This document shows positions 6,555-21,503 of a stretch of DNA of 64,000 bases, in pieces. The notes beneath the pieces were generated by a model that did not search any database, was not told the DNA's origin, and was given only the letters and a program-made list of their open reading frames with translations. The position numbers and the translations under genes were made by a program. Every line of letters starts with the position of its first letter. The stretch's first letter is position 1. The stretch is from a virus, in IMG/VR virus record IMGVR_UViG_3300027976_000007, positions 1 through 64,000 of that record; one strand, given 5' to 3'.

Positions 6555-6569
6555 TTTCTCATTAATACC

Positions 6570-7039: not shown

Positions 7040-7173
7040 AAAGCTAGTCTCTCCTAGCAGTCACACCTAAATTAACTGGTACAACATAGTATTGGCATCG
7101 CTCCTTTCGGTTTACGTATGTTTATCCAACCTAACACCGTTATACGTGCTTCCCTGTGTCCTACACGTTCATC
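7040..7173 (-). ncRNA. Candidate structured ncRNA ending in a GCTAG-GAGAGA-CTAGC-TTTT hairpin
   Basis: GC-richer non-coding stretch; ACGTAT/ATACGT stem, CC-GAAA-GG tetraloop, terminator-like 3' hairpin. Confidence 0.4.
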
Positions 7174-7341
7174 TTTATATTTTAACTGCTTTTTAACTAC
7201 TCACAACTCGGCAAAGTTCAAATAATGGCTTTCACAACAGTCTTGGGTCGTGACTTGATAATAGTTGAGTTCCGTCATTAAAAACTAGTTCGTTATTCTC
7301 TATTTTTACTACTTTTAATTTTTTCATTTTATTAAAATTTA

Positions 7342-7545
7342 TTATTGTTCACTCCCTTTTATTGATTCCTCAACATATAATACTTGGGATCTTAGATCTT
7401 TCAACTTTTCTTCTCTCTCTATTAGGAGTTTGACATGGAGACCTTTAAGAATGAGGTTCTGTTCTTTCATAGTGTACCGAATTAAAGAAGAATACACCTC
7501 CATCAACCCTTGAACTTTTTCTATTTCACTCATATTTTTTCTCAT
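7342..7545 (-). CDS. Hypothetical coiled-coil protein
   Basis: ORF directly after promoter 7553-7584. Confidence 0.6.
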   Translation of the reverse strand: MRKNMSEIEKVQGLMEVYSSLIRYTMKEQNLILKGLHVKLLIEREEKLKDLRSQVLYVEESIKGSEQ

Positions 7546-7757
7546 TTATGTCTAAAAATAACATCGATTTTTAGGGAAGCCAAACAAGACATACTATTCT
7601 TGAGGAAGTGTTTGATTTTCTATCATGATTCTTTATAATCAAAGTTAAAGTTCAAGTTGGGTTTTTGTTTTGGTTTTTTGTTGGGGTTAATTTTCATAAA
7701 TCTCATCCATTCTTTAAGTTGGGTGAGATTCTGTTGAGGGCTGTTTTTGTTCATAAT

Positions 7758-8015
7758 TTAAAATTCTACATTAATTGGGTTTACTCTATCAGAGCATACT
7801 ATTCGTCTTTCTTTACCGTTGGAAATGGCACAAGTTGAATCCCCATCAAGGTAATAAACCAGATTCCATGTTCCTGGATGGTCTAAACACATTACAGTAT
7901 CTCCTTGTTTTAGATGGCTTTTTTTCTTAGGCCTACCTCTCTTCTTTTTTACCTTCGGTCCAACGGTTATTGGATTTTTCCTTGGTCTTCCTCGTTTACG
8001 TTTTACAGATTCCAT
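7758..8015 (-). CDS. AT-hook DNA-binding protein
   Basis: Two KRGRP(R/K)K motifs; start moved downstream of promoter 8033-8064. Confidence 0.75.
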   Translation of the reverse strand: MESVKRKRGRPRKNPITVGPKVKKKRGRPKKKSHLKQGDTVMCLDHPGTWNLVYYLDGDSTCAISNGKERRIVCSDRVNPINVEF

Positions 8016-8254
8016 CCGTTCTTTCTTATACCTAAATATAACATCCTTTCCTTGGGGGGCCAAACCTAGGTTATAATGGGAATAATACTAAATACTTTAG
8101 GATTAATTGAAAATAGTGAAGAACCTGGTCAAACCCTATTAAGGAGAATGCTCCTAAATTAGGTATAGGCCCCCAATATAACACCAACAAATATCAGACT
8201 ATTGACCCAATTGCCTTCTAACAATAATATTTGTTTTTGTTTTAAATTAAATTT

Positions 8255-8713
8255 TTATCTACAAAGGTGATCTGCAGCTCGGCATGCAACTAAAGTTTCT
8301 GGTTTTACATTACATTTATAACCATAACCTCTAGCCCATCCCAAAGACGAAGATACCAGTTTATTTGAAAAGTAAGCATCATCATCATTTAAATCAAAAT
8401 CTACCCAATCAACTTTCAAATTGTTATTTGAGATATGCATTGCTACCTCCATAGTTAATTCAGTTTCCTTCCATAAACGTGTATACTTATCCTTAATCTT
8501 CTTTTCTTTGATCTTGTGATAAATTACATGAACTCCTCTATTCCCATATCTATAACATACACAAACAACAAAGAAGGTATGTCTTCTATGGTTTTGAGAA
8601 TCGGTTCCGACATGGACCGTTACATAGGGATTTTGGGAGATCATCTTCTTAGTATAGGAAATCACATCAATAGGGACATTGGGGGCTCTCTCGTTTTTAA
8701 AAACCTTTTTCAT
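8255..8713 (-). CDS. YkuK/DUF458-like RNase H-fold protein
   Basis: VHVGTDSQ, RLWKE and AAD motifs. Confidence 0.8.
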   Translation of the reverse strand: MKKVFKNERAPNVPIDVISYTKKMISQNPYVTVHVGTDSQNHRRHTFFVVCVCYRYGNRGVHVIYHKIKEKKIKDKYTRLWKETELTMEVAMHISNNNLKVDWVDFDLNDDDAYFSNKLVSSSLGWARGYGYKCNVKPETLVACRAADHLCR

Positions 8714-8858
8714 TATGTTCTTTTATGATTTTAAAACTTCCATCTACTATTTTACATTGTGGGGGGGAGTGACTTACATATAATTTATTTTTCATAGTTA
8801 CCTGAATCTTTTTAGGTATAGGGAAACTCTGTTATTTTCCGTTGCCCCGTTATTGTCA

Positions 8859-9173
8859 TCATTCCTTGATTTTAAATTGTTTACCTAACATTTGAGCCAG
8901 TTCCCCCATTGTATATTCTGGAACGGATTTGGGACGGTTGTCTCTAATTTCTCCATTTGAATTTTCATAATAAGTTACATTATTATTCGAGTCATATTCT
9001 GTTTTTTCCCAAAACTTATCGGAATTTTCATGATAGGTTTCATTACCTTTTGGGTCAAATTCTTGTTTGTACCAATATTTATCTGAATCTTCAGAATAAA
9101 TTTTATTACCCTTTGAATTCCGTATTTCAAAAGGAAATTCAGTTATTTTTAACTGTTGTGCAATTGTCATCAT
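8859..9173 (-). CDS. 21-aa repeat family protein (2 units)
   Basis: First ~67 aa identical to 4914-5291. Confidence 0.9.
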   Translation of the reverse strand: MMTIAQQLKITEFPFEIRNSKGNKIYSEDSDKYWYKQEFDPKGNETYHENSDKFWEKTEYDSNNNVTYYENSNGEIRDNRPKSVPEYTMGELAQMLGKQFKIKE

Positions 9174-9544
9174 TTCTTGATTTTAAATTCTTTACCTAAC
9201 ATCTTGGTCAGTTCTTCCATGGTGTATTCAGGAATTGATTTGGGACGGTTGTCTTCAATTATTCCATATGAATTTTCAAAATAGGTCATATTACCTCTTG
9301 AGTCAAATTCTCTTTTGACCCAATACTTATTTGAATCTTCATAATGGATTTCACAATTATTCAAGTCAAATTTTTGTTTGTACCAAAATTTCTTTGAATC
9401 TTCAGAATAGGTTAAATTATCCCTTGAATCAAATTCGTTTTTGATCCAATACTTATTTGAATTTTCAAAATAGATTTCATTACTTCTTGAATCCTTTATC
9501 CTAAAAGGGAATTCTGTTACTTTTAACTGTTCTGAAATTGTCAT
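9170..9544 (-). CDS. 21-aa repeat family protein (3 units)
   Basis: Shared caps and repeats. Confidence 0.9.
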   Translation of the reverse strand: MTISEQLKVTEFPFRIKDSRSNEIYFENSNKYWIKNEFDSRDNLTYSEDSKKFWYKQKFDLNNCEIHYEDSNKYWVKREFDSRGNMTYFENSYGIIEDNRPKSIPEYTMEELTKMLGKEFKIKK

Positions 9545-9987
9545 TGTTTCTTAATTTTAAATTCTTTACCTACTATCTTGGTCAACTCTTCCATTGTGTA
9601 CTCTGGAATGGATTTGGGGCGGTTGTCTCTAATTTCCCCCTTTGAATCTTCATAATAGGTTACACTACCTCTTGAGTTAAATTCTCTTTTCTCCCAATAT
9701 TTATTTGAAGTTTCAAAGTAGATTTCTTCATTGTTCTTCAAGTCAAATTCTCTTTTGACCCAAAAATTATTTGAATTTTCATAATAGATTTGATTATTAT
9801 TCGAGTCATATTCTTGTTTGTACCAAGACTTATTTGAATCTTCAAAATAGATTTTATTACCTTTCAAGTCAAATTCTTGTTTGTACCAAAATTTCTTTGA
9901 ATTTTCCCAATAGATTTTATTACCCTTACCGTCCTTTATGATAAAAGGAAACTCTGTTATATTTAACTGTTCTGCGATTGTCATCAT
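9541..9987 (-). CDS. 21-aa repeat family protein (4 units)
   Basis: Shared caps and repeats. Confidence 0.9.
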   Translation of the reverse strand: MMTIAEQLNITEFPFIIKDGKGNKIYWENSKKFWYKQEFDLKGNKIYFEDSNKSWYKQEYDSNNNQIYYENSNNFWVKREFDLKNNEEIYFETSNKYWEKREFNSRGSVTYYEDSKGEIRDNRPKSIPEYTMEELTKIVGKEFKIKKQ

Positions 9988-10487
9988 TTCTTGATTTTAA
10001 ATTCTTTACCTAACATTTGGGTTAGTTCTTCCATTGTGTACTCTGGGGTTGATTTAGGGCGATTGTCTATAATCAATTTATCTGAATTTTCAAAATATAT
10101 TTCCTTACTATTCAAGTCAAATTCTTTTTTATACCAACAACCATTTGAAGTTTCATAATATATCACATTACTATTCAAGTCAAATTCTTTTTTATACCAA
10201 CATTCATCTGAATCTTCATAAAATGTTACCCTATTATTCAAGTCAAATTCTTGTTTGTACCAAAATTTCTCGGAATTTTCATAATAGGTTAAATTATTAT
10301 TCGAGTCATATTCTCTTTTGGACCAAAAATTATTTGGATCTTCATAATAGGTTACACTACCTCTTGAGTTAAATTCTCTTTTCTCCCAATATTTATTTGA
10401 ATTTTCATAATATGTTTGGTTGCCTCTTGAATCCTTTATCCTAAAAGGGAATTCGGTCATCTTCAGTTGCTCTGCTATTGTCATCAT
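9984..10487 (-). CDS. 21-aa repeat family protein (5 units)
   Basis: Shared caps and repeats. Confidence 0.9.
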   Translation of the reverse strand: MMTIAEQLKMTEFPFRIKDSRGNQTYYENSNKYWEKREFNSRGSVTYYEDPNNFWSKREYDSNNNLTYYENSEKFWYKQEFDLNNRVTFYEDSDECWYKKEFDLNSNVIYYETSNGCWYKKEFDLNSKEIYFENSDKLIIDNRPKSTPEYTMEELTQMLGKEFKIKK

Positions 10488-10861
10488 TTCTTAACTTTAA
10501 ATTCTTTACCTAACATTTGGGTTAACTCCTCCATCGTGTATTCAGGAATTGATTTGGGGCGGTCGTCTCTAATTGTTCCATTTGAATCTTCAAAATATAT
10601 TTCATTGTCATTCGAGTCAAATTCTCTTTTGTACCAAAACTTATTTGAATCTTCATAATAGGTTTCATTGTCATTCGAGTCATATTCTGTTTTTTCCCAA
10701 AACTTATCGGAATTTTCATGATAGGTTTCATTACCTTTTGGGTCAAATTCTTGTTTGTACCAAAATTTCTTTGAATTTTCCCAATAGATTTTATTACCCT
10801 TACCGTCCTTTATGATAAAAGGAAACTCTGTTATATTTAACTGTTCTGCGATTGTCATCAT
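10484..10861 (-). CDS. 21-aa repeat family protein (3 units), chimera of 9541-9987 and 4914-5291
   Basis: N-terminus identical to 9541-9987; remainder nearly identical to 4914-5291. Confidence 0.9.
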   Translation of the reverse strand: MMTIAEQLNITEFPFIIKDGKGNKIYWENSKKFWYKQEFDPKGNETYHENSDKFWEKTEYDSNDNETYYEDSNKFWYKREFDSNDNEIYFEDSNGTIRDDRPKSIPEYTMEELTQMLGKEFKVKK

Positions 10862-10920
10862 TTCTTGATTTTAAATTCTTTACCTAACATTTGGGTTAAC
10901 TCTTCTATTGTATATTCTAA
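10858..10920 (-). pseudogene. Orphan C-cap fragment of the repeat family (similar relics at ~2992-3050, ~8797-8858, ~11260-11303)
   Basis: Encodes EYTIEELTQMLGKEFKIKK without the rest of the gene. Confidence 0.7.
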
Positions 10921-10943
10921 CATATGAGTTGATTGTAGTTCAA

Positions 10944-11162
10944 TTATCTTTCTAAAATTACAAAATCACCGAAGTATTCATCGAAAACCTTTATGAGTTC
11001 TTCATAGTCACCTTTCATCATCTCTCTCACAACATCATTCCCATCTATCCTCATCTGTCTTGCATATTCTTTAGCAATCCCCATCAAAACGAAAGCATTC
11101 CCTTCGGGTCCTGTCAAGTCAATAATTCTCTTACCTTTTGCTTTATTTTTTTTCCTTATCAT
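10944..11162 (-). CDS. Conserved small phage protein (IDLTGPEGNAF motif)
   Basis: Motif recognisable from large phage genomes; start moved to MIRKK. Confidence 0.7.
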   Translation of the reverse strand: MIRKKNKAKGKRIIDLTGPEGNAFVLMGIAKEYARQMRIDGNDVVREMMKGDYEELIKVFDEYFGDFVILER

Positions 11163-11561
11163 TTCCTTAATTTTTGAAATTCCTAATGTATGACTTAACC
11201 TCATAGATTATCTCAGGAGAAATTTCTACTTTAGGGCTTTCTGTTTTCTTAGGGAGGATTGTGTACTCTGGGGTTGATTTAGGGCGATTGTCTATAATCA
11301 ATTTAAGGGAATTTAATATCTTAATATTCCTATCCATCATCCTGAAAAGATCCTCTAAATTATAGTCTTTATTTCTCATGTCTGTTAATTATATCTAAAT
11401 ATAACATCAAATTTTGGGGGAGCCAAATCCGTTTTTAAATATATGGTAAATATGTGGCCTTTTAACGTAAGATTATAAGGTTATAACCACTACTTATAGA
11501 TTTTTAATACCCTATACGTTGATGGTGGGGTAATGGTTTAAATCGAAGGTAGGTGGGAAAA

Positions 11562-11897
11562 TTATTTCAATTTGTTTAAATATTGTTGGGTAGTTTTAAT
11601 TTCACCTTCATATTCTGTAAAATATATTATGAAATCGGCTTCTAATTGAATATCACAGAGATAAGCTTTGGTTTTCCTACTATAAACGTTTTCTCTATCC
11701 CAATACCAAAATCCTGGGTAGAATCTTGCTTTAATTGAATTGTTAGTAGATTTAACTATTATGTTTGCTTTATATTTCTCATTAGTGAAAAAGATTTTAA
11801 TATCAGCTTCATGGGTAGAAGGGGTGAAGGATATTATTTGGGTTTTAAGAGAAACAGAAATGAAAACAAATAGAAATAGAAATAAACTTTTCATCAT
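11562..11897 (-). CDS. Secreted small beta-repeat protein (DUF6150-like)
   Basis: Signal peptide; ADIKIFFT and ADFIIYFT repeats. Confidence 0.55.
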   Translation of the reverse strand: MMKSLFLFLFVFISVSLKTQIISFTPSTHEADIKIFFTNEKYKANIIVKSTNNSIKARFYPGFWYWDRENVYSRKTKAYLCDIQLEADFIIYFTEYEGEIKTTQQYLNKLK

Positions 11898-12295
11898 ACT
11901 ATTGGAGGATAGATAAATTTAAGTAGAGGGAATATTATTTTCTCCCACACCCATCCTAGAGAAATTATAATGGTTAGGATAACCGCTATTATTTCGAATT
12001 TGGATAGCTTCATACTCCATCTTTCCTTTTCATCTTCTTTTTTCCCTTTCTCTATAACTTGAATCTCAGACTTAACCTTAATTGTTGTAGCTTGTTCATC
12101 CATAAAATGTTTTACCATATCCCTAAAAGCATTAGATTCCTCAATTAACTTATCTAATTTTTCTTTGCTAGCTTTATGTTTGATGTCTTCTTTTAAGCTC
12201 ATAAGGTCTTTATCAACAAACCTAAGGTGAGTCAATACTTTAATGACCAAATCTCTAGTACCGTTGGTACTTTGGTCGTTGAAATCTTCATTCAT
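11894..12295 (-). CDS. Coiled-coil protein with C-terminal TM helix
   Basis: Hydrophobic C-terminus; ATGA-coupled to the cupin-PAS gene. Confidence 0.7.
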   Translation of the reverse strand: MNEDFNDQSTNGTRDLVIKVLTHLRFVDKDLMSLKEDIKHKASKEKLDKLIEESNAFRDMVKHFMDEQATTIKVKSEIQVIEKGKKEDEKERWSMKLSKFEIIAVILTIIISLGWVWEKIIFPLLKFIYPPIV

Positions 12296-13191
12296 ATCAG
12301 ATTTTTATATTTTGCTTTAAATTCTTTGTATTTCTCTTCTGTTGAAGGTGTATTATTACATATCCAATACTCCCCACCTATACTAGTACTTGATCTCTCC
12401 CAATCTACATAGAAATAATCTCCAGTGTGTTTTTTATCTTCGTTAAATATTTTATATTTTGTTATAACATTGTCTTTGGAAGAATCAGATTCCCAAAATT
12501 TGAGTATAAAGGTTTTTTCTCTGTCGGCAATCATATCCATGAAAGGAGTAGAATCAAAGGTTGCCGCGTCGAGTTTGGTCATTTCCAACCATAAAGGGGA
12601 ATAGTATTTAAAAAATCCATCAAATGTTAGGATACAATTTAGCCTATACGGTGAGAAGAAGAGATCCGTTAATAGTTGCTCTTTTAAAGCAAAATCATAA
12701 GCCATTATCTCCAGATTATCATATATGATATCAATTCTTTGTTCGGGGGTTATGTCCTCTCTTTCTTTATATTCTGCTGACCATCCATCCTGACCTAAAG
12801 CGGGACACCATACTAAAACAATCCCTTCGTTATCCAAGAATAAGGCTTTATGGATAACTCCTTTAGGTATTTTTAAACAATCACCTGCTTTCAATAAAAT
12901 CTTTTTGGTTGTAATTACTTGAAAACGTCCATCCTCTAATTCTTGCACTTCACCTAGAAAATACACGACATTTCCTACGGCGGTCACGCTTTCAGAGAAA
13001 TCATGATAATGCCAGTCAAAAAGTTCTCCATCCACACCTTTGTAGATAGCTAGAGTTGCTATCTTACCTCCAATATCAAAAATTCCCTTTAATTTTGAAC
13101 CTTTTGAATTAAAGATTTGCCATTTATCGGTTATTTTGAAGTTTTTAACATTTTGAATGGGTTCTTTTAAAATCTTCTTTTCAATTTCCAT
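12292..13191 (-). CDS. Cupin domain plus PAS-like domain protein
   Basis: WHYH..SE / GD...IPKGVIH cupin motif; LNCILTFDGFFKYYSPLW...PFMDMI resembles a PAS core. Confidence 0.6.
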   Translation of the reverse strand: MEIEKKILKEPIQNVKNFKITDKWQIFNSKGSKLKGIFDIGGKIATLAIYKGVDGELFDWHYHDFSESVTAVGNVVYFLGEVQELEDGRFQVITTKKILLKAGDCLKIPKGVIHKALFLDNEGIVLVWCPALGQDGWSAEYKEREDITPEQRIDIIYDNLEIMAYDFALKEQLLTDLFFSPYRLNCILTFDGFFKYYSPLWLEMTKLDAATFDSTPFMDMIADREKTFILKFWESDSSKDNVITKYKIFNEDKKHTGDYFYVDWERSSTSIGGEYWICNNTPSTEEKYKEFKAKYKNLI

Positions 13192-13248
13192 TTATACATT
13201 TTGTTATAAATATATAGAAAAGTGTCAATATTGTACTTAATTTTAATG

Positions 13249-13321
13249 AGCCTCCCCCCAGAATCGAACTGGATTCTCCAACTTACCGAGTTGGACATCA
13301 TCCAATAAATGTTTAGGAGAC
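13249..13321 (-). tRNA. tRNA-Thr(GGU), atypical C33
   Basis: Cloverleaf; CCAAC-TCGGTAA-GTTGG; GTTCGAT T-loop. Confidence 0.75.
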
Positions 13322-13326
13322 TTAAT

Positions 13327-13415
13327 TGGAGGAAGACAAAGGTATCGAACCTTACTCCTTATGGGGAGCGTGTTGTTTAGCAAACAAACCCCATCACCAT
13401 TTGGGATTATCTTCC
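13327..13415 (-). tRNA. tRNA-Ser(GCU)
   Basis: TT-GCT-AA loop, long variable arm, encoded CCA. Confidence 0.85.
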
Positions 13416-13426
13416 TTTTTTATTAG

Positions 13427-13508
13427 TCGGCAGAGAGGGATTTGAACCCACATTTTCAACATACCAATTACAGTTCTCCATCTTATCAGGATGGGCTGGT
13501 ACCTGCCG
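13427..13508 (-). tRNA. Non-canonical tRNA-Ile(GAU)-like RNA; anticodon arm precedes the D-loop-like motif
   Basis: CGGCAGG/TCTGCCG-A acceptor; CCATC-CTGATAA-GATGG after a 7-nt linker; then GTAATTGGTATGTTGAAAAT and the T-arm. Confidence 0.75.
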
Positions 13509-13516
13509 TTTATTTT

Positions 13517-13586
13517 AGCCCGTATACTGAAATCGAATCAGTCTAGCCACCGTTATGAGCAGCAACCCTTCCCAGAAGATACGGGT
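13517..13586 (-). tRNA. tRNA(CAU) Met/Ile2 with a minimal D-arm
   Basis: CT-CAT-AA loop; CTTC-TGG-GAAG D-arm; ACTGA-TTCGATT-TCAGT T-arm. Confidence 0.65.
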
Positions 13587-13905
13587 GGTCCAACTTTAGA
13601 ATTTTAGGGTTTCTCGGTATGTGACTCCTTAACCTTTGTACCTCTTCCATTATTACTAAAATGAAAGCCATATTATTAAATGTGATGAATTTTTCTTTAT
13701 TCCAATACTTCTCATGTATACTAAAAGCTCTGGGTGGATGCATTCAAAATGTTATAACATTTCTTTATCTATTAACCAACAATTTTTTACATTTAATTTA
13801 TATAATATTAAACTGTTATTAGTTTTCTCTTTCTAACATCGGCTGTTTAGCTTGGGTTAAGACTTAAGTCTTTTATAGCCCCAACGATTAACAATTTAAA
13901 ATCAG

Positions 13906-13992
13906 TAGCGGGAGAGGGAATTGAACCCAGCGCACCTTTTGGTTCTTAGCTTATGAGACTAAGGAGGCATACCAACAGCCTTCATTCCCGCT
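13906..13992 (-). tRNA. tRNA(CAU) Met with extended D-stem and long variable arm
   Basis: AGCGGGA/TCCCGCT-A; TTAGT-CTCATAA-GCTAA. Confidence 0.7.
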
Positions 13993-13994
13993 AG

Positions 13995-14075
13995 TAGTCT
14001 AGATGGGATTCGAACCCACGTTTTCAATGTACCGCTACGGATATCCAAGATATAAGCTTGGTTCGATACTAGACT
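13995..14075 (-). tRNA. Non-canonical tRNA-Ile(UAU)-like RNA; anticodon arm precedes the D-loop-like motif
   Basis: AGTCTAG/CTAGACT-A; CCAAG-CTTATAT-CTTGG; CGTAGCGGTACATTGAAAAC; GTGGG-TTCGAAT-CCCAT. Confidence 0.75.
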
Positions 14076-14085
14076 ATTTATGTTG

Positions 14086-14158
14086 TGGAGCCACCGACAC
14101 ACGATATCGGATCCGATGATTGCAAATCATCAATTTTAACCACTTAAACTATGGCCCC
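14086..14158 (-). tRNA. tRNA-Ala(UGC), atypical T-loop
   Basis: G3:U70; TT-TGC-AA loop; T-loop ATCGTGT. Confidence 0.85.
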
Positions 14159-14166
14159 TTTTGTTG

Positions 14167-14246
14167 AGGGGATGGTGGGATTCGAACCCACATTTTCAAC
14201 TCCAATTACGATTAGTAGTTTCGAAGACTACCTCGATTACATTCCC
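14167..14246 (-). tRNA. Non-canonical tRNA-Arg(UCG)-like RNA; anticodon arm precedes the D-loop-like motif
   Basis: GGGAATG/CATCCCC; GTAGT-CTTCGAA-ACTAC; CGTAATTGGAGTTGAAAAT; GTGGG-TTCGAAT-CCCAC. Confidence 0.75.
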
Positions 14247-14255
14247 TTTTTTGTT

Positions 14256-14564
14256 TTATTTAAAAGTTTTAGAATATTCTTTAATTGTATCTAAAACTGT
14301 TTCATCTTTAGCAACTAATTGTGCTAGCCTTTTTATTACCTCTTTCATTTGCCCAAAATTGGCTTGACTGTTACCTATATCCTCCTCACATAAACTTTGA
14401 GCTAGAGGATTTATTTTTTCATTGTAATTAAACTTATCCATTCCTTTGCTATTTTTATTAACAATTGTTCTGTTTTTATATTGGAGGTATTCATATTTTA
14501 TTAAATTAAATAGTATATATAATACTACAACTACAATACTGCACAAAGCTAATACTTTCTCCAT
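14256..14564 (-). CDS. Hypothetical protein with N-terminal TM helix, inside the tRNA array
   Basis: 102-aa ORF filling the gap between tRNAs. Confidence 0.55.
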   Translation of the reverse strand: MEKVLALCSIVVVVLYILFNLIKYEYLQYKNRTIVNKNSKGMDKFNYNEKINPLAQSLCEEDIGNSQANFGQMKEVIKRLAQLVAKDETVLDTIKEYSKTFK

Positions 14565-14578
14565 ATATTTAAATTTTG

Positions 14579-14651
14579 TACCCCTAACAGGACTCGAACC
14601 TATACTAAAACTTTAGAAAAGTCTTGTGCTAATCCGTTACACTATAAGGGC
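14579..14651 (-). tRNA. tRNA-Arg(UCU)
   Basis: Canonical cloverleaf, TT-TCT-AA. Confidence 0.9.
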
Positions 14652-14663
14652 ATTTTAGTTTTG

Positions 14664-14737
14664 CTGTCCCCCCAGGGATCGAACCTGGAAACTCTACATT
14701 CAAAATGTAGCGGCTTTTCCTGTTTGCCTAGAGGACA
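14664..14737 (-). tRNA. tRNA-Gln(UUG)
   Basis: CTACA-TTTTGAA-TGTAG. Confidence 0.9.
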
Positions 14738-14750
14738 TTATATTAATTTG

Positions 14751-14824
14751 AGCGAGTAGACGGGATTGAACCTACTCTATTCCTGGTTGGAAGCCAAGTG
14801 CACCACCTCTTATGCGTTACTCGC
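14751..14824 (-). tRNA. tRNA-Gly(UCC)
   Basis: CT-TCC-AA; GCG start, U73. Confidence 0.9.
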
Positions 14825-14889
14825 TTGTATTTTCATTGTAATGATGTTTCCTATGACAATTAGAACATAAAACAATGCATTTATTTTTG

Positions 14890-14975
14890 TACTCGGAGAG
14901 GGACTCGAACCCTCACGATCGTTACTGATCACTGGAGCTTAAACCCAGCGTGACTACCAATTCCACCATCCAAGC
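14890..14975 (-). tRNA. tRNA-Leu(UAA)
   Basis: TT-TAA-GC; long variable arm. Confidence 0.9.
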
Positions 14976-14988
14976 ATCTTTATTTAAT

Positions 14989-15020
14989 TAAATATAACAT
15001 CCATATTTTGGATAGCCAAA
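14989..15020 (-). promoter_or_regulatory. Internal Bacteroidota-type promoter in the tRNA array
   Basis: TTTGGCTATCCAAAATATGGATGTTATATTTA. Confidence 0.8.
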
Positions 15021-15034
15021 TTATGGTGAAAATA

Positions 15035-15107
15035 GAGCACTTAACCGGCTTCGAACCGATGACCTCTCATTACAAGTGAGGAATTTTACCTACTAAACTA
15101 TAAGTGC
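15035..15107 (-). tRNA. tRNA-Thr(UGU)
   Basis: CT-TGT-AA. Confidence 0.9.
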
Positions 15108-15165
15108 TTATAAAATGGCCTTGCACCATTTCGGAAGTCTTTCGCGTTAACTTCTAAAGCCATGA

Positions 15166-15250
15166 TGAGGGTGGAGGAACCGAGCCCCTACCGATATTAC
15201 ACGATACCCTAGTTTTCAAGACTAGTTGTTCTCCCTTGAACGGCACCCTC
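15166..15250 (-). tRNA. tRNA-Ser(UGA), degenerate T-arm
   Basis: CTAGT-CTTGAAA-ACTAG; long variable arm; T-loop CTCGGTT. Confidence 0.65.
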
Positions 15251-15260
15251 AATTTAATAG

Positions 15261-15331
15261 TCTAAATGGTCAGAATCGAACTGACTACACCATGAACCCC
15301 ATTCATGATCGATACCTTATTCGTCATCTAG
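15261..15331 (-). tRNA. tRNA-Pro(GGG)
   Basis: CATGA-ATGGGGT-TCATG; C1-G72, A73. Confidence 0.75.
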
Positions 15332-15341
15332 TTTTATATTG

Positions 15342-15420
15342 TGGTCTTAAGAGGATTCGAACCCCTACCTGCGATTACTACTTTTGAAATAGTGGACTTT
15401 ACCAATTTGTCCATAAGACC
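15342..15420 (-). tRNA. tRNA-Leu(CAA), short variable arm
   Basis: ACTAT-TTCAAAA-GTAGT. Confidence 0.8.
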
Positions 15421-15425
15421 CGTTG

Positions 15426-15504
15426 TACCCATAACAGGACTCGAACCCGCACCAACGATTATTGCTTCTAAGGCAATGGACTTTACCAATTTGTCCATAT
15501 GGGC
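15426..15504 (-). tRNA. tRNA-Leu(UAG), short variable arm
   Basis: ATTGC-CTTAGAA-GCAAT; D-arm identical to the adjacent Leu(CAA). Confidence 0.85.
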
Positions 15505-15509
15505 ATTAA

Positions 15510-15584
15510 GGGAGTTATACGAGATTCGAACTCGTTCCTGAAGATTCACAATCTTCTATGCATACCTCTTACAACTATAACTCC
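15510..15584 (-). tRNA. tRNA-His(GUG)
   Basis: GAAGA-TTGTGAA-TCTTC. Confidence 0.9.
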
Positions 15585-15808
15585 ATGTAAAAATTTAATC
15601 TAGTTGGACTGGTTACCCGAATCCTCTTCATTTTCCCTCCAATTGAGTCTAAAATGAACCATGGCCTTCAAAACCTTATCAATAATAAGGGATGATTTGT
15701 TCTACTATAGATTAAAAGTATCGTCGAGGATAAGTATAACATTCAAGTTTAGTTTACAGACAAAACTTCTTTGTCCAACCTTTTTGTTTTTATTCCTTCG
15801 ATATTATG

Positions 15809-15879
15809 TCGGGTAGGTAGGATTCGAACCTACTATGCAACCGCTTCCAAGGCGGAGCCAGACCCATCGTGTCTACCCG
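15809..15879 (-). tRNA. tRNA-Pro(UGG), weak D-arm
   Basis: CT-TGG-AA; CGGGTAG/CTACCCG-A. Confidence 0.8.
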
Positions 15880-15889
15880 TTATTAATTG

Positions 15890-15960
15890 AGGTCAGTATA
15901 GGAATTGAACCCATATAAGATGGGTTGCAACCACCTACCTTACCAGTCGGACAACTGACC
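15890..15960 (-). tRNA. tRNA-Cys(GCA)
   Basis: TT-GCA-AC; U73. Confidence 0.9.
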
Positions 15961-15967
15961 TTGTTAG

Positions 15968-16040
15968 TACCCCCTGTAGGAATTGAACCTACCTAATGTT
16001 GTATGTAAAACAACCTCCTACCCAGTCAGAACTAAGGGGC
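15968..16040 (-). tRNA. tRNA-Val(UAC)
   Basis: GTTGT-TTTACAT-ACAAC. Confidence 0.85.
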
Positions 16041-16048
16041 TTATAATG

Positions 16049-16157
16049 TGGTGAGAGGGTTTGAGTTCTAACTAACACTTATTGGACCGTTCTATGATCC
16101 GTGACAAGTTAGTCATATGTTTTTTCCAATAATACATCTTTCTATTTGATGTCCTCA
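16049..16157 (-). ncRNA. Unclassified structured RNA candidate ending in CCA
   Basis: Paired termini TGAG../..CTCA-CCA; internal stems ACATC/GATGT, TTATTGGA/TCCAATAA, TGAC/GTCA. Confidence 0.4.
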
Positions 16158-16162
16158 TTTTT

Positions 16163-16234
16163 TGGTGGGCCTGAAGGAATCGAACCTTACTTGGTAGAGT
16201 TTTACAGACTCGCCCGCACCCTGTGCTCAAACCC
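16163..16234 (-). tRNA. tRNA-Tyr(GUA), short variable loop and 3-nt D-loop
   Basis: CT-GTA-AA; GCAC-AGG-GTGC; encoded CCA. Confidence 0.8.
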
Positions 16235-16289
16235 AAATTGTCCATTCTATATTCTATATTGGTCTGTGAATGGTCTTAACAGCCCCCAG

Positions 16290-16363
16290 TGCACCCCGAG
16301 GGGATCGAACCCTCAACCTGCCGGTTAAAAGCCGGTAGCTACTTCCACTTGAACTTCGAGTGC
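16290..16363 (-). tRNA. tRNA-Lys(UUU)
   Basis: CT-TTT-AA. Confidence 0.9.
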
Positions 16364-16491
16364 AATAATTAATAGAGCTTCATTGATTTCCTACTCCATT
16401 TACTACCTTTAATCAGGTAGAGGCTCATTCACGGTATCTATCAATACCTAATGAATTTTTACATTACTATGATAATTAAGTAAAAGATTGT

Positions 16492-16562
16492 CGGACCCGG
16501 GGGACTCGAACCCCGACCTTCACAGTGACAGTGTGATATGCAAGCCATTACACCACGAATCC
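16492..16562 (-). tRNA. tRNA-Asp(GUC)
   Basis: TCACA-CTGTCAC-TGTGA; G73. Confidence 0.9.
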
Positions 16563-16687
16563 GTTATTTTAAAGGTTAATTACTTCTTTGCTTCAAAATC
16601 ATATCTCGAGAATTTGATTCATAACCTTAAATGTGATCTTAATGTAATTTTCTATTACAATTCGAACATAGAATAATACATTGGAAG

Positions 16688-16761
16688 TACTGTCGACCGG
16701 ACTCGAACCGGCATCTTCTATCTTGAAAGGATAGCGTCCTAAGCCATTAGACGACAACAGC
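16688..16761 (-). tRNA. tRNA-Glu(UUC)
   Basis: CTATC-CTTTCAA-GATAG. Confidence 0.9.
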
Positions 16762-16851
16762 ATTTTTAAATTAATAAAATAGGATGGAATTACAAACCAT
16801 TTGTACGAAACGTACTGTATGTTTTCCTTTTTATAAACTTATTTTTAATTG

Positions 16852-16923
16852 AGGGCCTGGAGAATTTCGAAATCCCGGCCTGTTAGTTAACAGCTAACTG
16901 CTCTGCCTCTGAGCTACAGACCC
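16852..16923 (-). tRNA. tRNA-Asn(GUU)
   Basis: GTTAG-CTGTTAA-CTAAC. Confidence 0.85.
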
Positions 16924-16932
16924 TATTAAGTA

Positions 16933-16948
16933 CAATACGTCAAACAAC
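16933..16948 (-). promoter_or_regulatory. boxA-like antitermination signal in the tRNA-array leader
   Basis: GTTGTTTGACGTATTG, downstream of promoter 17027-17058 and a hairpin; resembles rRNA-leader boxA. Confidence 0.45.
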
Positions 16949-17026
16949 TTATGATTAATTTAATAAGTCCTAATCATTCAGACTTGTTAATTTTCGCGGC
17001 TGTTAACCCCGCTCCTCTTAACTATA

Positions 17027-17058
17027 TAAATATAACATCCTTTTTTACCGGAGCCAAA
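17027..17058 (-). promoter_or_regulatory. Bacteroidota-type promoter
   Basis: TTTGGCTCCGGTAAAAAAAGGATGTTATATTTA-type motif. Confidence 0.8.
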
Positions 17059-17072
17059 CTTATTTTTAATTG

Positions 17073-17144
17073 CACGTTGACTAGAATTCGAATCTAGATC
17101 TTCAATTCTGGAGATTGAAATGCTTGCCATTACACCATCAACGT
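17073..17144 (-). tRNA. tRNA-Trp(CCA)
   Basis: TCAAT-CTCCAGA-ATTGA. Confidence 0.9.
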
Positions 17145-17155
17145 ATTTTATATTG

Positions 17156-17227
17156 CGGGACCGAAGGGATTCGAACCCTTACCCGAGGATCTTCAATCCC
17201 CAGTGCCACCTGTTACACCACAGTCCC
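17156..17227 (-). tRNA. tRNA-Phe(GAA), first gene of the array
   Basis: TT-GAA-GA. Confidence 0.9.
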
Positions 17228-17243
17228 TAATTTCTCTTATATC

Positions 17244-17275
17244 TAAATATAACATCCCTCTTTTGGGAGGCCAAA
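17244..17275 (-). promoter_or_regulatory. Bacteroidota-type promoter
   Basis: TTTGGCCTCCCAAAAGAGGGATGTTATATTTA. Confidence 0.85.
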
Positions 17276-17285
17276 CATATTTTTA

Positions 17286-17317
17286 AATAAAGAAAGCTCA
17301 ACTTTGAGGTTGAGCTT
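17286..17317 (-). terminator. Intrinsic terminator, candidate attenuator
   Basis: AAGCTCAAC-CTCAAA-GTTGAGCTT followed by TCTTTATTT. Confidence 0.75.
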
Positions 17318-17348
17318 AAATTATTTTTCAATATTATTTGAAATCTAC

Positions 17349-17447
17349 TTATTCAAGCTCATATTTTTCCCCTTTAAAGGCCACCGTATCTATCTCACTA
17401 GGGAGTAGCTGTGGCCAGGTATAATTATGTCTTAAATTTAATTTCAT
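17349..17447 (-). CDS. Candidate leader peptide MKLNLRHNYTWPQLLPSEIDTVAFKGEKYELE (32 aa)
   Basis: Translated by hand; A-rich start context; 19 amino acids and 25 distinct codons; last codons complementary to the terminator 5' arm. Confidence 0.65.
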   Translation of the reverse strand: MKLNLRHNYTWPQLLPSEIDTVAFKGEKYELE

Positions 17448-17463
17448 TGTTTCTTATTTGTTA

Positions 17464-17493
17464 TAAATATATAAAGAAGTTTAAGTCGCCAAA
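17464..17493 (-). promoter_or_regulatory. Promoter variant (TTTG-N18-TATATTTA) upstream of the leader peptide
   Basis: TTTGGCGACTTAAACTTCTTTATATATTTA. Confidence 0.6.
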
Positions 17494-17647
17494 CTTATTT
17501 TTTTTCTTTTTTTCATCTAGATGTTTATAGGGTTCTTTAAAACTCATGAATCCTTCAGGGGAGTCATAACCTATACCCCCATAAATGAACCATCTCCTGG
17601 ATCAGCTATTCTTAATTTATTAATTTATTTAGTTCTGATTTTTTATT

Positions 17648-17848
17648 TTATTCCCAGTCTTCATTTTTAGGTTTTTTTTTATTTATTTTCTTTTTTTCTT
17701 TCTTAGGTTGGAATGGTATATCATGAAGATCCTCATCGCAATTATGACATCTCATTATTCCATCAGGCTCTATATAATATCCTTCTATCTTTAAACAATG
17801 GGGACAGCCTTCCTCAGATAAATAATCTTCTACTTTAATCTTGGACAT
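17648..17848 (-). CDS. Zn-ribbon protein
   Basis: CPHC...CHNC, basic tail. Confidence 0.7.
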   Translation of the reverse strand: MSKIKVEDYLSEEGCPHCLKIEGYYIEPDGIMRCHNCDEDLHDIPFQPKKEKKKINKKKPKNEDWE

Positions 17849-17851
17849 TAC

Positions 17852-18256
17852 TTATAATTCGAGAGGATCTATATTAACTTCTATTGAATCCATATCTTCG
17901 AATTCTTCATAATCTTCTTCTAAAACCCATTCTTGGTCTTCTTTAAGGAGGTCTTCAAAAGACTTTTCATCTTTTTCTAACTTCCAAGCTATAGGCTGGA
18001 GTAAACCTGCATTTTCATATACTACCCATACTCTGTCTTTCCAAAGATCCATAGTAATACCTTCTACTTCACATTTATATCCAAATTTCATAGTTATTTG
18101 GGCTAAAAGATCTATAAACTCATCACATAGTTTATGTAATTCACCCTCTATAGGGAAATTTGAACCATATTCTTTAGACCTGTTGGTTTTGGAATCAAAT
18201 AGGTTTTTAATCTCTAACCATTTGGTGTTTATTATACTCCGTTTTCCTTCTTTCAT
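17852..18256 (-). CDS. Hypothetical protein with acidic C-terminus
   Basis: 134-aa ORF. Confidence 0.7.
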   Translation of the reverse strand: MKEGKRSIINTKWLEIKNLFDSKTNRSKEYGSNFPIEGELHKLCDEFIDLLAQITMKFGYKCEVEGITMDLWKDRVWVVYENAGLLQPIAWKLEKDEKSFEDLLKEDQEWVLEEDYEEFEDMDSIEVNIDPLEL

Positions 18257-18429
18257 ATTTAATTTTTAATTATAATTTTTCTTAACATGCAATGTTACGT
18301 TTGTGTTTCGTATTAAGTTTTATTTTAATGAAACCCTAGCATATTTTTCTCTAACCTTTACCAACCAATTCATGAAAGGTTAGGTTTTGGTGATCTTCAT
18401 TTAGGAACTTTTTCCAATTTTCCTTTATG

Positions 18430-19224
18430 TTATCTTCCATTTTTATTGTTTGGTCTGTTGTCGTCAATTCTTCCATCTGAATCTTCATAATAGGTTTCAT
18501 TGTCATTCGAGTCAAATTCTTGTTTGTACCAAAAATTATTTGAATTTTCATAATAGGTTTGATTACCATTCGAGTCAAATTCTTGTTTGTACCAATACCC
18601 ATCTGAATCTTTATAAGAGGTTACATTATTATTCGAGTCATATTCACTTTTGGTCCAATACTTATTTGAACTTTCATAATAGGTTATATTATTATTCAAG
18701 TCAAATTCTTGTTTGTACCAATACTTATCTGAATTTTCAAAATAGATTTTATTACCTCTAGAATCTTTTTCTATATAGGGGAATTTTGTTATACCCAATT
18801 CTTGAGCTTTAGTCATTTCTTCATTTAGGAACTTTTTCCAATTTTCTTTTATATTATCTTCCATGTTGTTGTTTGGGCGATCGTCTATAATCAATCCACT
18901 TGAATTTTCATAATAGGTTTGATTACCCTTCGAGTCAAATTCTTGTTTGTACCAATACCCATCTGAATCTTTATAAGAGGTTACATTATTATTCGAGTCA
19001 TATTCACTTTTGGTCCAATACTTATTTGAACTTTCATAATAGGTTATATTATTATTCAAGTCAAATTCTTGTTTGTACCAAGACTTATTTGAATCTTCAT
19101 AATAGATTTTATTACCTCTAGAATCCTTTTCTATATAAGGAAATTCAGTTATACCCAATTCTTGGGCTTTAGTCATTTCTTCATTTAGGAACTTTTTCCA
19201 GTTTTCCTTTATGTTATCTTCCAT
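18430..19224 (-). CDS. Tandem fusion of two [MEDNIKENWKKFLNEE leader + 21-aa repeat module] units
   Basis: Leader at 19224 and 18864 (360-nt period); a third leader at 18440 is out of frame; repeat units match the 4229-10861 family. Confidence 0.8.
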   Translation of the reverse strand: MEDNIKENWKKFLNEEMTKAQELGITEFPYIEKDSRGNKIYYEDSNKSWYKQEFDLNNNITYYESSNKYWTKSEYDSNNNVTSYKDSDGYWYKQEFDSKGNQTYYENSSGLIIDDRPNNNMEDNIKENWKKFLNEEMTKAQELGITKFPYIEKDSRGNKIYFENSDKYWYKQEFDLNNNITYYESSNKYWTKSEYDSNNNVTSYKDSDGYWYKQEFDSNGNQTYYENSNNFWYKQEFDSNDNETYYEDSDGRIDDNRPNNKNGR

Positions 19225-19255
19225 GTTGCTGTTTGGGCGTTTGTCTTCAATGTAC

Positions 19256-20302
19256 CTAATCTGTTTTTTCCTGTATGTAATTCTCAAAATCTTCAACCAT
19301 ATCCTCCAAAGACATATCTTCATATTGATCAGTATCTCCTCTCTTAATGTCAGCATAAACTGCAGATAAATATAGTTTAATGTTACCTTTATCTTCTCCT
19401 TTAAGGTTAATTAAAAGGTCTTTAAGTTTTTTCTTTAGAGTTCCGGTTATGGTGGGGGTTTTTTCATCTTCCTTTAGATCCCCATCATCCTCCGAATGGT
19501 CCTCAAGGTATTTTTTTAGGTTAAAACCACCCCATGAAATATCTGTTTTTTTCTTGGGGGTTTTTTCATCATCCTCCGAATGGTCCTCAAGGTATTTTTT
19601 TAGGTTAAAACCACCCCATGAAATATCTGTTTTTTTCTTGGGGGTTTTTTCATCTTCCTTTAGATCCCCATCATCCTCCGAATGGTCCTCAAGGTATTTT
19701 TTTAGGTTAAAACCACCCCATGAAATATCTGTTTTTTTCTTGGGGGTTTTTTCATCATCCTCCGAATGGTCCTCAAGGTATTTTTTTAGGTTAAAACCAC
19801 CCCATGAAATATCTGTTTTTTTCTTGGGGGTTTTTTCATCATCCTCAGAATAATCCTCACTTAAAAACCTATTCCATTCCTTTTTAATTACCTCATCTAT
19901 GTTAGAAGTAACCCCAGCTTCATTTCTTTCCAAGAAATCAACTATTTCGCCTTCTTTTGGTCCTTTGAAGGTTTTCCATTCCCTTATTCGGTTATCATAA
20001 ATATAAATATAATTTTCACCCGAAAATATTCTAGACATTTTCTCTACTATTGAGTAATAGTCCATTTCCTGGATAGGTTGGGAAAAATGTTTTGGAGGTT
20101 TAGAATCTGGGTAAAATTCTAAATTCCCTTCCTCATCAAGAAATCTCATTTCTTTTTGTTTTGATATAAAAAGGGCCTCATTGTCGGTGTTGTATAGGTT
20201 TTTTAAGATTTTTCCAGTATGGTCTTCATAACCATCAGAGTTTACTCTAGTCCCATTTATTTGGCCATGGCCATCATAATATATAATTGCAGCAGAAGTC
20301 AT
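19256..20302 (-). CDS. Hypothetical protein with internal 28/35-aa tandem repeats (probable internal head protein)
   Basis: 4 x EKTPKKKTDISWGGFNLKKYLEDHSEDD. Confidence 0.75.
   Translation of the reverse strand: MTSAAIIYYDGHGQINGTRVNSDGYEDHTGKILKNLYNTDNEALFISKQKEMRFLDEEGNLEFYPDSKPPKHFSQPIQEMDYYSIVEKMSRIFSGENYIYIYDNRIREWKTFKGPKEGEIVDFLERNEAGVTSNIDEVIKKEWNRFLSEDYSEDDEKTPKKKTDISWGGFNLKKYLEDHSEDDEKTPKKKTDISWGGFNLKKYLEDHSEDDGDLKEDEKTPKKKTDISWGGFNLKKYLEDHSEDDEKTPKKKTDISWGGFNLKKYLEDHSEDDGDLKEDEKTPTITGTLKKKLKDLLINLKGEDKGNIKLYLSAVYADIKRGDTDQYEDMSLEDMVEDFENYIQEKTD
19455..19850. repeat. Perfect in-frame tandem repeats, alternating 84- and 105-bp units
   Basis: Identical DNA blocks read directly. Confidence 0.9.
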
Positions 20303-20323
20303 ATTTTAGTTTTATTATAAATA

Positions 20324-20740
20324 TTATAGATTATATTTAAGTTCATATGATTTCAATACTTTGTAACCTACACCTATCTCTAGTATCTGGGCTTTAGAAG
20401 GGATACCTACTATTTTATCACAAGACAAAATGTAGTCTATATTTTGATTCTTAAAGATTTTAATTTTGGTTGGGGCTTTAGGTTTGGATGAAGATTTGTA
20501 TACAATAGATACAGGCATCCTACCGTAAGACTTATTCTTTTCTATTTTAGGAGATGTGAATTTATATCCTTTAGGATAATTATGTTCTACCTTATAAGGT
20601 CCAGTATTAGACTTTAATAGATCAACAAACCATTGAGTATGCCAACCTTCACCTTGAACCTTCTTACTTGCAAACTCATGAAAGTTTTGAGTATATTTCT
20701 CAAGAACTTCATCATTCTCACTGGGTCTTCCTCTACTCAT
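20324..20740 (-). CDS. Hypothetical protein
   Basis: Start moved downstream of promoter 20767-20798. Confidence 0.7.
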   Translation of the reverse strand: MSRGRPSENDEVLEKYTQNFHEFASKKVQGEGWHTQWFVDLLKSNTGPYKVEHNYPKGYKFTSPKIEKNKSYGRMPVSIVYKSSSKPKAPTKIKIFKNQNIDYILSCDKIVGIPSKAQILEIGVGYKVLKSYELKYNL

Positions 20741-20805
20741 AATTTTCTTGCGTTTCTTATTATACGTAAATATGACATCCTTATCTTGGAGAGCCAAACA
20801 GGGGG

Positions 20806-21252
20806 TTATGTATTTTTTAATTTTTGTACGTGCTTACAAGCCTTGGTTTTATCATAAGCTCTGGCGAATCCCGGACAATTACATCTATATTTAATCTCAC
20901 CGTTTTCAATTGTCTCCTTTACTTTATAAATAACACCACTTGATGAAGACTTCATCTCATGAGTTATGGTTTCAATTGGACTTTTAGGAATGGGTTTAAC
21001 CCAAACAATGTCTTTCAAAGTAGTACCTTTATGAACTTCAACCCATGAAGGAACTAAGTATCTTTTTCCATCAGGGGAACTATATAGAATGGGAGGCAAA
21101 TAAGAATGTTTATATTCATAAACAAACCTTCTAACATAAACTACCCTCCCTAACCCTTTTCCTAAAGTGAGGGGTCGGCCCGGGGGAATGTTAACTATTC
21201 TAGTTCTAACATTCCCATATTTATTCAGATTTTTAAACTCCCATAAAGCCAT
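20806..21252 (-). CDS. SWIM Zn-finger protein
   Basis: CNCPGF...CKH; promoter 21271-21302. Confidence 0.75.
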   Translation of the reverse strand: MALWEFKNLNKYGNVRTRIVNIPPGRPLTLGKGLGRVVYVRRFVYEYKHSYLPPILYSSPDGKRYLVPSWVEVHKGTTLKDIVWVKPIPKSPIETITHEMKSSSSGVIYKVKETIENGEIKYRCNCPGFARAYDKTKACKHVQKLKNT

Positions 21253-21503
21253 TATACTCCATTTTACGCGTAAATATAACATCACTCTTTGGGGGTGCCA
21301 AACATATGATGGGGTATGAGGTAGTGGTTAAAAAGCGTTAATCCCACGTTAATTCACGTTACTTTTTAATGTTGATGTAATCATACCTTCAATAGTCAAT
21401 AACAAACATATGCTATCAAAAGAATTTGGATTCTGTGTGAAAGAATCTATTAATTGACCGTCGGTCATATTATGGAATATGGTTTCAAAACTAAAATGAG
21501 AGG

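Follow-up and report, generated by a model that had tools for sequence, protein, structure and literature searches.

A probable leader-peptide attenuator sampling nearly all amino acids at the head of a complete phage tRNA array

The stretch of DNA analysed here, referred to as the window, comprises the first 64 kb (positions 1 to 64,000) of the 142,110-bp phage record IMGVR_UViG_3300027976_000007 of IMG/VR (G+C 31%). All long open reading frames (ORFs) of this record lie on the minus strand, which we refer to as the coding strand, and genes for a tail sheath, tail tube and baseplate identify a myovirus-type phage. Our subject is a short cassette at the head of the phage's tRNA array, consisting of a promoter, a 32-codon ORF and an intrinsic terminator whose 5' arm is complementary to the end of that ORF. 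We argue, from its sequence and from folding models, that the cassette is probably a ribosome-mediated leader-peptide attenuator and a member of a recurrent family of phage cassettes. Its parts, together with the features directly behind it, are as follows.

17488-17493, minus strand: TTTGGC, a -33-like element of the leader promoter; the hexamer is also found in the phage's ~20 early-class promoters
17457-17471, minus strand: exact copy of the 15-nt late-type promoter motif TATATTTATAACAAA, the -7 region of the leader promoter
17349-17447, minus strand: leader ORF of 32 codons plus stop, with 25 different codons and 19 kinds of amino acid (Cys is absent)
17426-17446, minus strand: region 1, the putative anti-antiterminator, predicted by minimum free energy and partition function to pair with region 2 when no ribosome is present
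17379-17416, minus strand: internal G+C-rich hairpin (arms 17416-17411 and 17384-17379), nested in the region 1:2 helix
17351-17361, minus strand: region 2, the 5' strand of the antiterminator, spanning the final four codons plus the first stop-codon base
17311-17321, minus strand: region 3, the 3' strand of the antiterminator and also the 5' arm of the terminator, which pairs with region 2
17284-17317, minus strand: intrinsic terminator (hairpin 17317-17294, T-rich tract to 17284)
17245-17275, minus strand: early-class promoter, identified as a promoter-family match, between the terminator and tRNA-Phe, and so able to bypass the terminator
13248-17227, minus strand: tRNA array of 27 genes, which together serve all 20 amino acids; two early-class promoters, at 17058 and 15020, lie inside it

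An earlier, sequence-only reading of the window had proposed that the ORF is a leader sampling nearly all amino acids ahead of the tRNA array, and every coordinate and count that it gave for the ORF, its kinds of amino acid, its codons, the terminator and the promoters holds. The diversity of the leader is unusual in comparison with background: at least 19 kinds per 32 codons are reached by 0.17% of windows in the phage's own proteins and by 0.5-0.7% of random ORFs, and the leader is the sole ORF to reach 19 kinds among the genome's 152 ORFs of 28-36 codons. The G+C content of third codon positions is 0.34 in the leader versus 0.23 in the phage's genes, with the rare G/C-ending codons concentrated in codons 10-26; several of these are there because of the internal hairpin. 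The context of the leader ATG falls at the 40th percentile of real gene starts and within the top 4.8% of all ATGs, and the ATG lies 17 nt past the -7 box, the same spacing as is seen for protein genes behind this promoter family. Under strict wobble rules the leader calls on 20 of the phage's 26 tRNA species, and its amino acids cover 19 of the 20 in the array, a comparison that has little test power because the array is complete. Searches for homologues of the peptide by tblastn, tblastx and a protein atlas returned noise only. Metagenome contigs with the exact leader peptide are 99.9-100% identical and, for that reason, uninformative on covariation; the single SNP within the leader ORF among these near-identical strains is non-synonymous.

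The terminator has a stem of 9 bp, including four G-C pairs, a 6-nt loop and a T-rich tail. The coding strand of the 142-kb genome has just one other canonical intergenic terminator, at genome positions 79979-79947 (L155:3948-3980), where it separates the tail tube gene from the late promoter that serves the baseplate hub gene; the remaining terminator-like hairpins of the genome fall within ORFs. The complementarity between the end of the leader ORF and the terminator 5' arm, given previously as 10 bp, in fact extends to 11 bp with one G-U pair (-14.8 kcal/mol), and the hairpin described inside the ORF is present. As hairpins, the antiterminator is predicted at -15.3 kcal/mol versus -13.2 kcal/mol for the terminator, and ~28 nt separate the stop codon from region 3. 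A duplex equally strong with the terminator arm is formed by 0.1-0.3% of natural windows and by 1-2% of local shuffles. The ~170-nt unit as a whole also folds better than its shuffles (z = -3.6); however, since the folding energy of the ORF region is ordinary for this genome, 13% of whose windows fold as well, we set the z-score aside as evidence.

The arrangement of these pairings suggests how the cassette might work. When no ribosome is present, region 1 would hold region 2 and the terminator would form, and a ribosome that has reached the stop codon would cover region 2, with the same result. A ribosome delayed within about the first 15 codons would instead cover region 1, leaving region 2 to pair with the terminator 5' arm and allowing transcription to read through into the tRNA genes. 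With roughly one codon apiece for almost all amino acids, the leader could be translated more slowly whenever one of many different charged tRNAs runs short, and the cassette would act as a broad sensor of decoding speed, not as a sensor of a single amino acid.

We modelled this behaviour by representing the ribosome as a 30-nt unpaired mask and reading the probability of the terminator stem from the partition function. The predicted terminator probability is 0.94 without a ribosome, 0.02-0.22 with the A site at codons 1-15, and 0.93-0.95 from codon 26 to the stop codon, and this three-state pattern is stable at 10, 25 and 37 °C, with two footprints and with three 5' ends. The ribosome-position logic of the sequence-only reading is thereby reproduced, with one correction: a stall was said to free the antiterminator at almost any codon, which holds reliably only for codons ~1-15, save that in upstream-started transcripts at 37 °C the read-through zone reaches ~codon 25. 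Regions 2-4 alone give a terminator probability of 0.03, which rises to 0.94 with the native upstream part, an effect also seen with 11% of shuffles and 19% of natural segments. Of 400 dinucleotide shuffles none shows the full three-state behaviour, and of 5,794 natural segments inserted in the same register one does. Taken alone, the predicted folding is suggestive, not decisive.

Stronger support comes from other phages, in at least five other lineages of which, all uncultured, matching cassettes precede large tRNA blocks; the expectation that the layout of leader, antiterminator and terminator would recur ahead of tRNA arrays elsewhere is thus confirmed. In L048, an unrelated contig, a switch-like hairpin (one of the four found among 217 control hairpins of related loci) lies inside a 23-tRNA array, in the order hybrid promoter, 31-codon ORF with 19 kinds of amino acid, terminator 29 nt past the stop codon, and tRNA-Phe with 17 further tRNAs, with no promoter in between. 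Further cassettes were recovered by two scans of the locus collection. L163/L205, L173 and L214, which are related to L048, have 19-20 kinds in 30-31 codons, and L224 (18 kinds in 28 codons), L162 (17 in 27) and L290 (20 in 31) carry a promoter, mini-ORF and terminator before blocks of 6-20 tRNAs; leaders of the L048 family and these three thus hold 17-20 kinds in 27-31 codons. Of the 4,512 mini-ORFs of 25-34 codons that served as controls, drawn from all loci, 0.29% reach at least 19 kinds, 0.9% at least 18 and 3.5% at least 17. Two further leaders, of L283 (14 kinds in 25 codons) and L299 (15 in 34), are less diverse.

In several of these cassettes the composition of the leader follows that of the tRNA block. 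The L162 leader covers all 14 of the 14 downstream amino acids, the L299 leader consists mostly of the 7 amino acids that its 10 downstream tRNAs serve, and the L048 and L163 leaders lack Thr, the Thr tRNA of that family being located upstream of the cassette. The hybrid promoter of the window cassette, in which TTTGGC is combined with a late-gene -7 motif, recurs in the L048 family and L162 and is absent from L224, L283, L290 and L299. Every homologous cassette has its region 2 equivalent where the ORF ends, the distance from stop codon to terminator is 28-32 nt in the L048 family and L224, and these same cassettes give the three-state profile of the window cassette in the mask model. In the L048 family ~29-31 nt lie between terminator and tRNA, with no promoter behind the terminator. 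The window cassette shares the defining traits of the group, namely an ORF of 25-34 codons with at least 17 kinds of amino acid that ends on the antiterminator strand 20-34 nt before a terminator, and it aligns with the others, including a common spacer segment and the start of the terminator.

To this we add R1, a covariance model for which five cassettes from other phages were used and the window locus was left out; the RNAalifold consensus structure of the five is the antiterminator. R1 returned the following match.

17286-17372, minus strand: full-length R1 match, 24.4 bits, with a modest and roughly calibrated E-value of 0.0055 in the window and 0.012 in the genome

This is the only R1 match in the window and in the whole genome, and its score is level with those of L283 and L162. 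Over eight cassettes, in an alignment (A4) that was fitted to the R1 structure, the antiterminator helix is 96% paired and 9 of its 16 pairs are changed on both sides; none of 500 shuffles reaches any of the five covariation measures, and slid controls are 22-52% paired. As the terminator register in A4 shifts by one column between rows, no column-wise count is given for the terminator. The cassettes elsewhere, with their equally diverse leaders and covarying antiterminator, and the recognition of the window locus by R1 support the sequence-only proposal of a leader-peptide attenuator.

Three other features were noted around these cassettes. The T tract of the terminator is followed at once by a conserved motif, GTTCTTTGACRTAT, in L048 (2729-2745), L163, L173, L162, L224, L283 and L299; this motif has a one-base variant in L214, is absent from L290 and the window cassette, and lies too near the first tRNA to be a promoter. 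L170, L180 and L209 carry the hybrid promoter, a 22-codon ORF with 15 kinds of amino acid and, ~70 nt further on, tRNAs for Thr, Met and Trp, an arrangement that may be a variant cassette, although our scan of these three found no canonical terminator. In L123 (5698-5903; also L003 and L051) tRNA-Thr is preceded by a terminator and, before that, by a 48-codon ORF whose N-terminus resembles that of a lipoprotein and whose second half is very rich in Thr; this ORF may be a Thr-specific leader or a small lipoprotein. A search for the tail sheath in the cassette-bearing contigs, which are fragments, gave no match.

The comparative data also bear on two explanations in which the leader is not a sensor. 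In one, the locus is a translation-independent RNA element, such as a small RNA or a riboswitch-like leader (e.g. one with T-box-like sensing of tRNA), and the ORF is incidental. The better folding of the ~170-nt unit than its shuffles would fit such an element, as would the fact that what is conserved across phages is the RNA pairing and not the peptide sequence. Yet no Rfam family, T-boxes included, matches at E-values up to 1, all cassettes, although their sequences have diverged, retain an open frame of 25-34 codons whose end coincides with region 2, the start context is typical of real genes, and an amino-acid diversity far above chance is sensible only if the ORF is translated, and we consider an RNA element of this kind quite improbable. 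In the other, a chance ORF and a chance complementarity have come together in a decayed intergenic stretch of a hypervariable slot. The slot between the gene for a 66-aa protein and the tRNAs is indeed variable in relatives, the sequence-only reading chose its features after the fact, and 1-3% of natural hairpins look switch-like. Against this, the joint probability is small (diversity ~0.3-0.7%, registered switch behaviour ~0.02% of natural segments), the promoter motif is an exact 15-mer, of which we estimate ~0.007 copies by chance, and the locus was found by a model built from other phages, so that coincidence appears very improbable indeed.

A third explanation depends on the promoters. 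The sequence-only reading noted a promoter-like motif at 17464-17493; promoter motifs are present there, and the description was an understatement, as an exact 15-nt late-gene motif stands alongside TTTGGC. At up to two mismatches, TATATTTATAACAAA occurs in 20 copies on the coding strand versus 3 on the other. Exact copies precede the genes for the tail sheath, the baseplate hub and a minor-head-like protein as well as the gene after the tRNA array, and the motif also precedes the tail tube and head-tail adaptor genes. TTTGGC lies 16 nt upstream of the -7 motif, a spacing that matches the leader promoters of L048, L163, L173 and L162. Judged from these motifs, the leader promoter is late-type, or dual given its TTTGGC. 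More generally, the late class (genome 76-138 kb; in the window at 20325, 17471 and 13214) comprises ~20 copies of TATATTTATAACAAA without a -33 element, before structural genes. The early class (window 2295-21302; genome 133-141 kb) consists of TTTGGC, a conserved spacer that holds a short CC...GG dyad, and GATGTTATATTT, and precedes small genes and tRNAs; most copies lie either in the left arm of the genome, which looks early, or at its right end. It numbers ~20 copies in the genome, with 11 matches in the window versus 0.10 expected, and the three promoters downstream of the terminator, raised as a caveat in the sequence-only reading, are real members of this family; those inside the array are at 17058-17028 and 15020-14990.

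These promoters invite a simpler explanation, in which the leader is an autonomous mini-cistron, a gene for a small peptide, late or early, with its own promoter; the insulating terminator would do no more than end this unit and the upstream operon and protect the strong tRNA promoter from transcription coming in, and the alternative pairings would have no regulatory role. We first favoured this explanation because the nearest relatives lack the cassette and because the array has promoters of its own, three in number. Small ORFs directly behind promoters are common in the genome. Among other phages with this promoter type, in L063 the tRNA array is preceded by a promoter, a 95-codon ORF, a terminator and a second promoter, and G004 and G001 have a promoter and a ~65-codon ORF before tRNAs, with no terminator. 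L147-L152, the nearest relatives by gene content (the 134-aa neighbour protein is 67% and the 66-aa neighbour 34% identical), manage without a cassette; homologues of the 134-aa neighbour at 45-51% identity stand in a different gene context. The ordinary folding energy of the ORF region likewise fits a mini-cistron. However, a mini-cistron leaves unexplained the extreme amino-acid diversity of unrelated peptides in the same cassette position, the covariation of the helix between ORF end and terminator arm, and the recurrence of the three-state behaviour, and it sits poorly with a peptide that has no homologue and whose lone SNP among near-identical strains is non-synonymous. It was dropped as the favourite because of the L048 cassette and the further comparative evidence, and we now regard it as unlikely.

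Support for the principle of attenuation ahead of phage tRNA genes also comes from an unrelated phage, phiCbK (JX100813). At 51.3-51.5 kb it has a sigma-70-like promoter and a 32-codon ORF with a stretch rich in Gln, Phe, Val and Ile, followed by a depositor-annotated terminator and then a Phe-Val-Ile-Ile-Val-Gln-Gln tRNA block. The mask model predicts antitermination only at codons 11-13, inside the Gln/Phe/Val/Ile stretch, a profile suggesting that the principle exists beyond the cassette family of the window. Elsewhere in phiCbK, two more annotated terminators (49540-49769 and 48120-48166) stand directly before tRNA blocks, and Ser, Leu, Pro and Lys are abundant, as are Ala and Thr, in the 45-aa gp083, which precedes a Pro/Lys/Leu/Ser tRNA block.

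Several observations weigh against an attenuator at the window locus. The leader has no codon runs, each of its 25 different codons being used at most three times. Its codons 1-15 hold only 11 kinds of amino acid (P = 0.33), and the unusual diversity arises in codons 16-25, partly beyond the robust sensing zone of codons 1-15. A consensus early-class promoter precedes the first tRNA and two more lie within the array, so that read-through would only add transcription; no promoter of this kind occurs in the other cassettes. In L147-L152 a syntenic small tRNA cluster has an early-type promoter directly before its first tRNA and neither leader nor terminator. Folding was modelled at equilibrium, with a balance between terminator and antiterminator of ~2 kcal/mol, and in this model L283, L290 and L299 show no switch and L162 a partial one. 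Comparable natural hairpins are switch-like in their own context in 1 of 31 cases in this genome and 4 of 217 in related loci, and because of this frequency of 1-3% we downgraded the evidence based on shuffles only. The modest R1 E-value and the fitting of A4 to the structure of R1 belong here as well. Weighing these points with the evidence above, we hold that the window cassette is probably a ribosome-mediated leader-peptide attenuator. As early-class promoters also drive the array, the attenuator would most likely act on no transcripts other than those begun at its own late-type promoter or arriving from the upstream operon, providing a conditional late top-up of tRNAs. The late type of the leader promoter would weaken the objection from bypass promoters, if early promoters are shut off late in infection, and it is probably late read-through only that the attenuator gates.

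What the attenuator would be for is a more tentative matter. One possibility, which we put forward with some reserve, is that it is a pan-amino-acid sensor of 'decoding health': late in infection, when the early promoters are off and large amounts of structural protein are being made, a lack or cleavage of nearly any tRNA would slow the ribosome on the leader and thereby re-open the full tRNA set from the late promoter. The triggers could include codon-usage mismatch, starvation and host anticodon nucleases, the link to the last of these being speculation. Phage tRNAs have come to be regarded as a means of countering host defences that target tRNAs (PMC10264068, PMC11555353, PMC11464382), and an attenuator in front of them would make this counter-measure inducible. 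It would also explain how large phage tRNA arrays are regulated, which the phage-tRNA papers that we found leave open. If so, the virus would possess a feedback loop by which it gauges the capacity for translation and restores that capacity by means of its own tRNAs, and the ~200-nt cassette would be a small natural sensor of global decoding speed. Phages have apparently turned the textbook logic of attenuation onto their own tRNA genes, with a leader that seems to be a roster of the tRNAs behind it; a complete array accordingly goes with nearly all amino acids.

Within the array, ARAGORN detects 19 tRNA genes with default and 27 with relaxed settings. Several tRNA-like genes at 13327-14246 are detected only by relaxed ARAGORN or Rfam, and their anticodons are ambiguous, e.g. 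in those at 14246-14166 and 14080-13992. The array also contains a 102-codon ORF of no known family (14256-14564, minus strand), which gene callers predict in all of the near-identical metagenome contigs. In L147 (13854-16175), L148 and L149 the small tRNA cluster is followed by RNaseH-like, KTI12/AAA_33 kinase-like and Septknot genes and a T4 Rnl1-type RNA ligase, the last being absent from L150-L151. By its composition the gene set of L147-L149 looks like a tRNA repair module; behind the array of the window only a Septknot homologue (11562-11897) is recognisable. An Rnl1-like ligase and a kinase-like gene next to a tRNA cluster indicate no more than that tRNA damage plays a part in this group. 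Comparison of the region by blastn with 50,697 phage records gave no match or matches to tRNAs only, and the DNA polymerase is at most 33% identical to those of known phages; on this evidence, deposited phages include no close relative of the window phage. Searches of viral contigs for the neighbour proteins and the polymerase by means of peptide patterns gave no match, and an Rfam covariance scan of window positions 12.5-18.5 kb at E-values up to 1 found tRNAs only, with nothing in 17228-17650.

The known targets of leader-peptide attenuation are amino-acid and synthetase genes, and the leader there responds to a single amino acid or to a few. The trpL, hisL and multivalent ilvGMEDA and thr leaders of enterobacteria are leader-peptide attenuators of amino-acid operons, and such classical attenuators rely on repeated regulatory codons; the ilvGMEDA leader is 32 codons long, the same length as the leader described here. 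Like the trp, his and ilv attenuators, the window cassette has a promoter, a short leader ORF with a usable start and a terminator before the genes to be regulated, and it is predicted to share with them an antiterminator that uses a strand of the terminator, an upstream sequestering strand and an outcome set by the position of the ribosome. In contrast to them, it is phage-encoded, would control tRNA genes instead of biosynthetic enzymes, has about one codon each for 19 amino acids in place of codon runs, and is followed by a further promoter behind the terminator; nor does it match any of the leader families of Rfam. The window cassette would therefore work like the classical attenuator family but is not a classical member of it.

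T-boxes are tRNA-sensing antitermination elements upstream of aminoacyl-tRNA synthetase and related genes, and resemble our cassette in coupling the state of the tRNA pool to terminator read-through via a competing antiterminator. A T-box, however, binds one specific uncharged tRNA directly, without translation and through a conserved fold, whereas the window cassette has a conserved open frame and no T-box match. The closest likeness is to the cassettes of other phages, with which it shares ORF length, the position of region 2 at the last codons, spacer length, terminator and high diversity. It differs from them as the extreme case, heading a complete 20-amino-acid array, in the unrelated sequence of its peptide, and in having an early-class promoter in the place of GTTCTTTGACRTAT. 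A leader free of codon runs would need sensitivity to the speed of single codons. One study shows that the output of the his-leader attenuator can report the decoding speed of single codons, in an engineered genetic assay in Salmonella and not a natural multi-amino-acid sensor (PMC4046918). A full-text literature search returned no description of leader-peptide control of phage tRNA genes. What is new here is the pan-amino-acid extreme case, the cassette family with its covariation, the covariance model and the late-promoter context.

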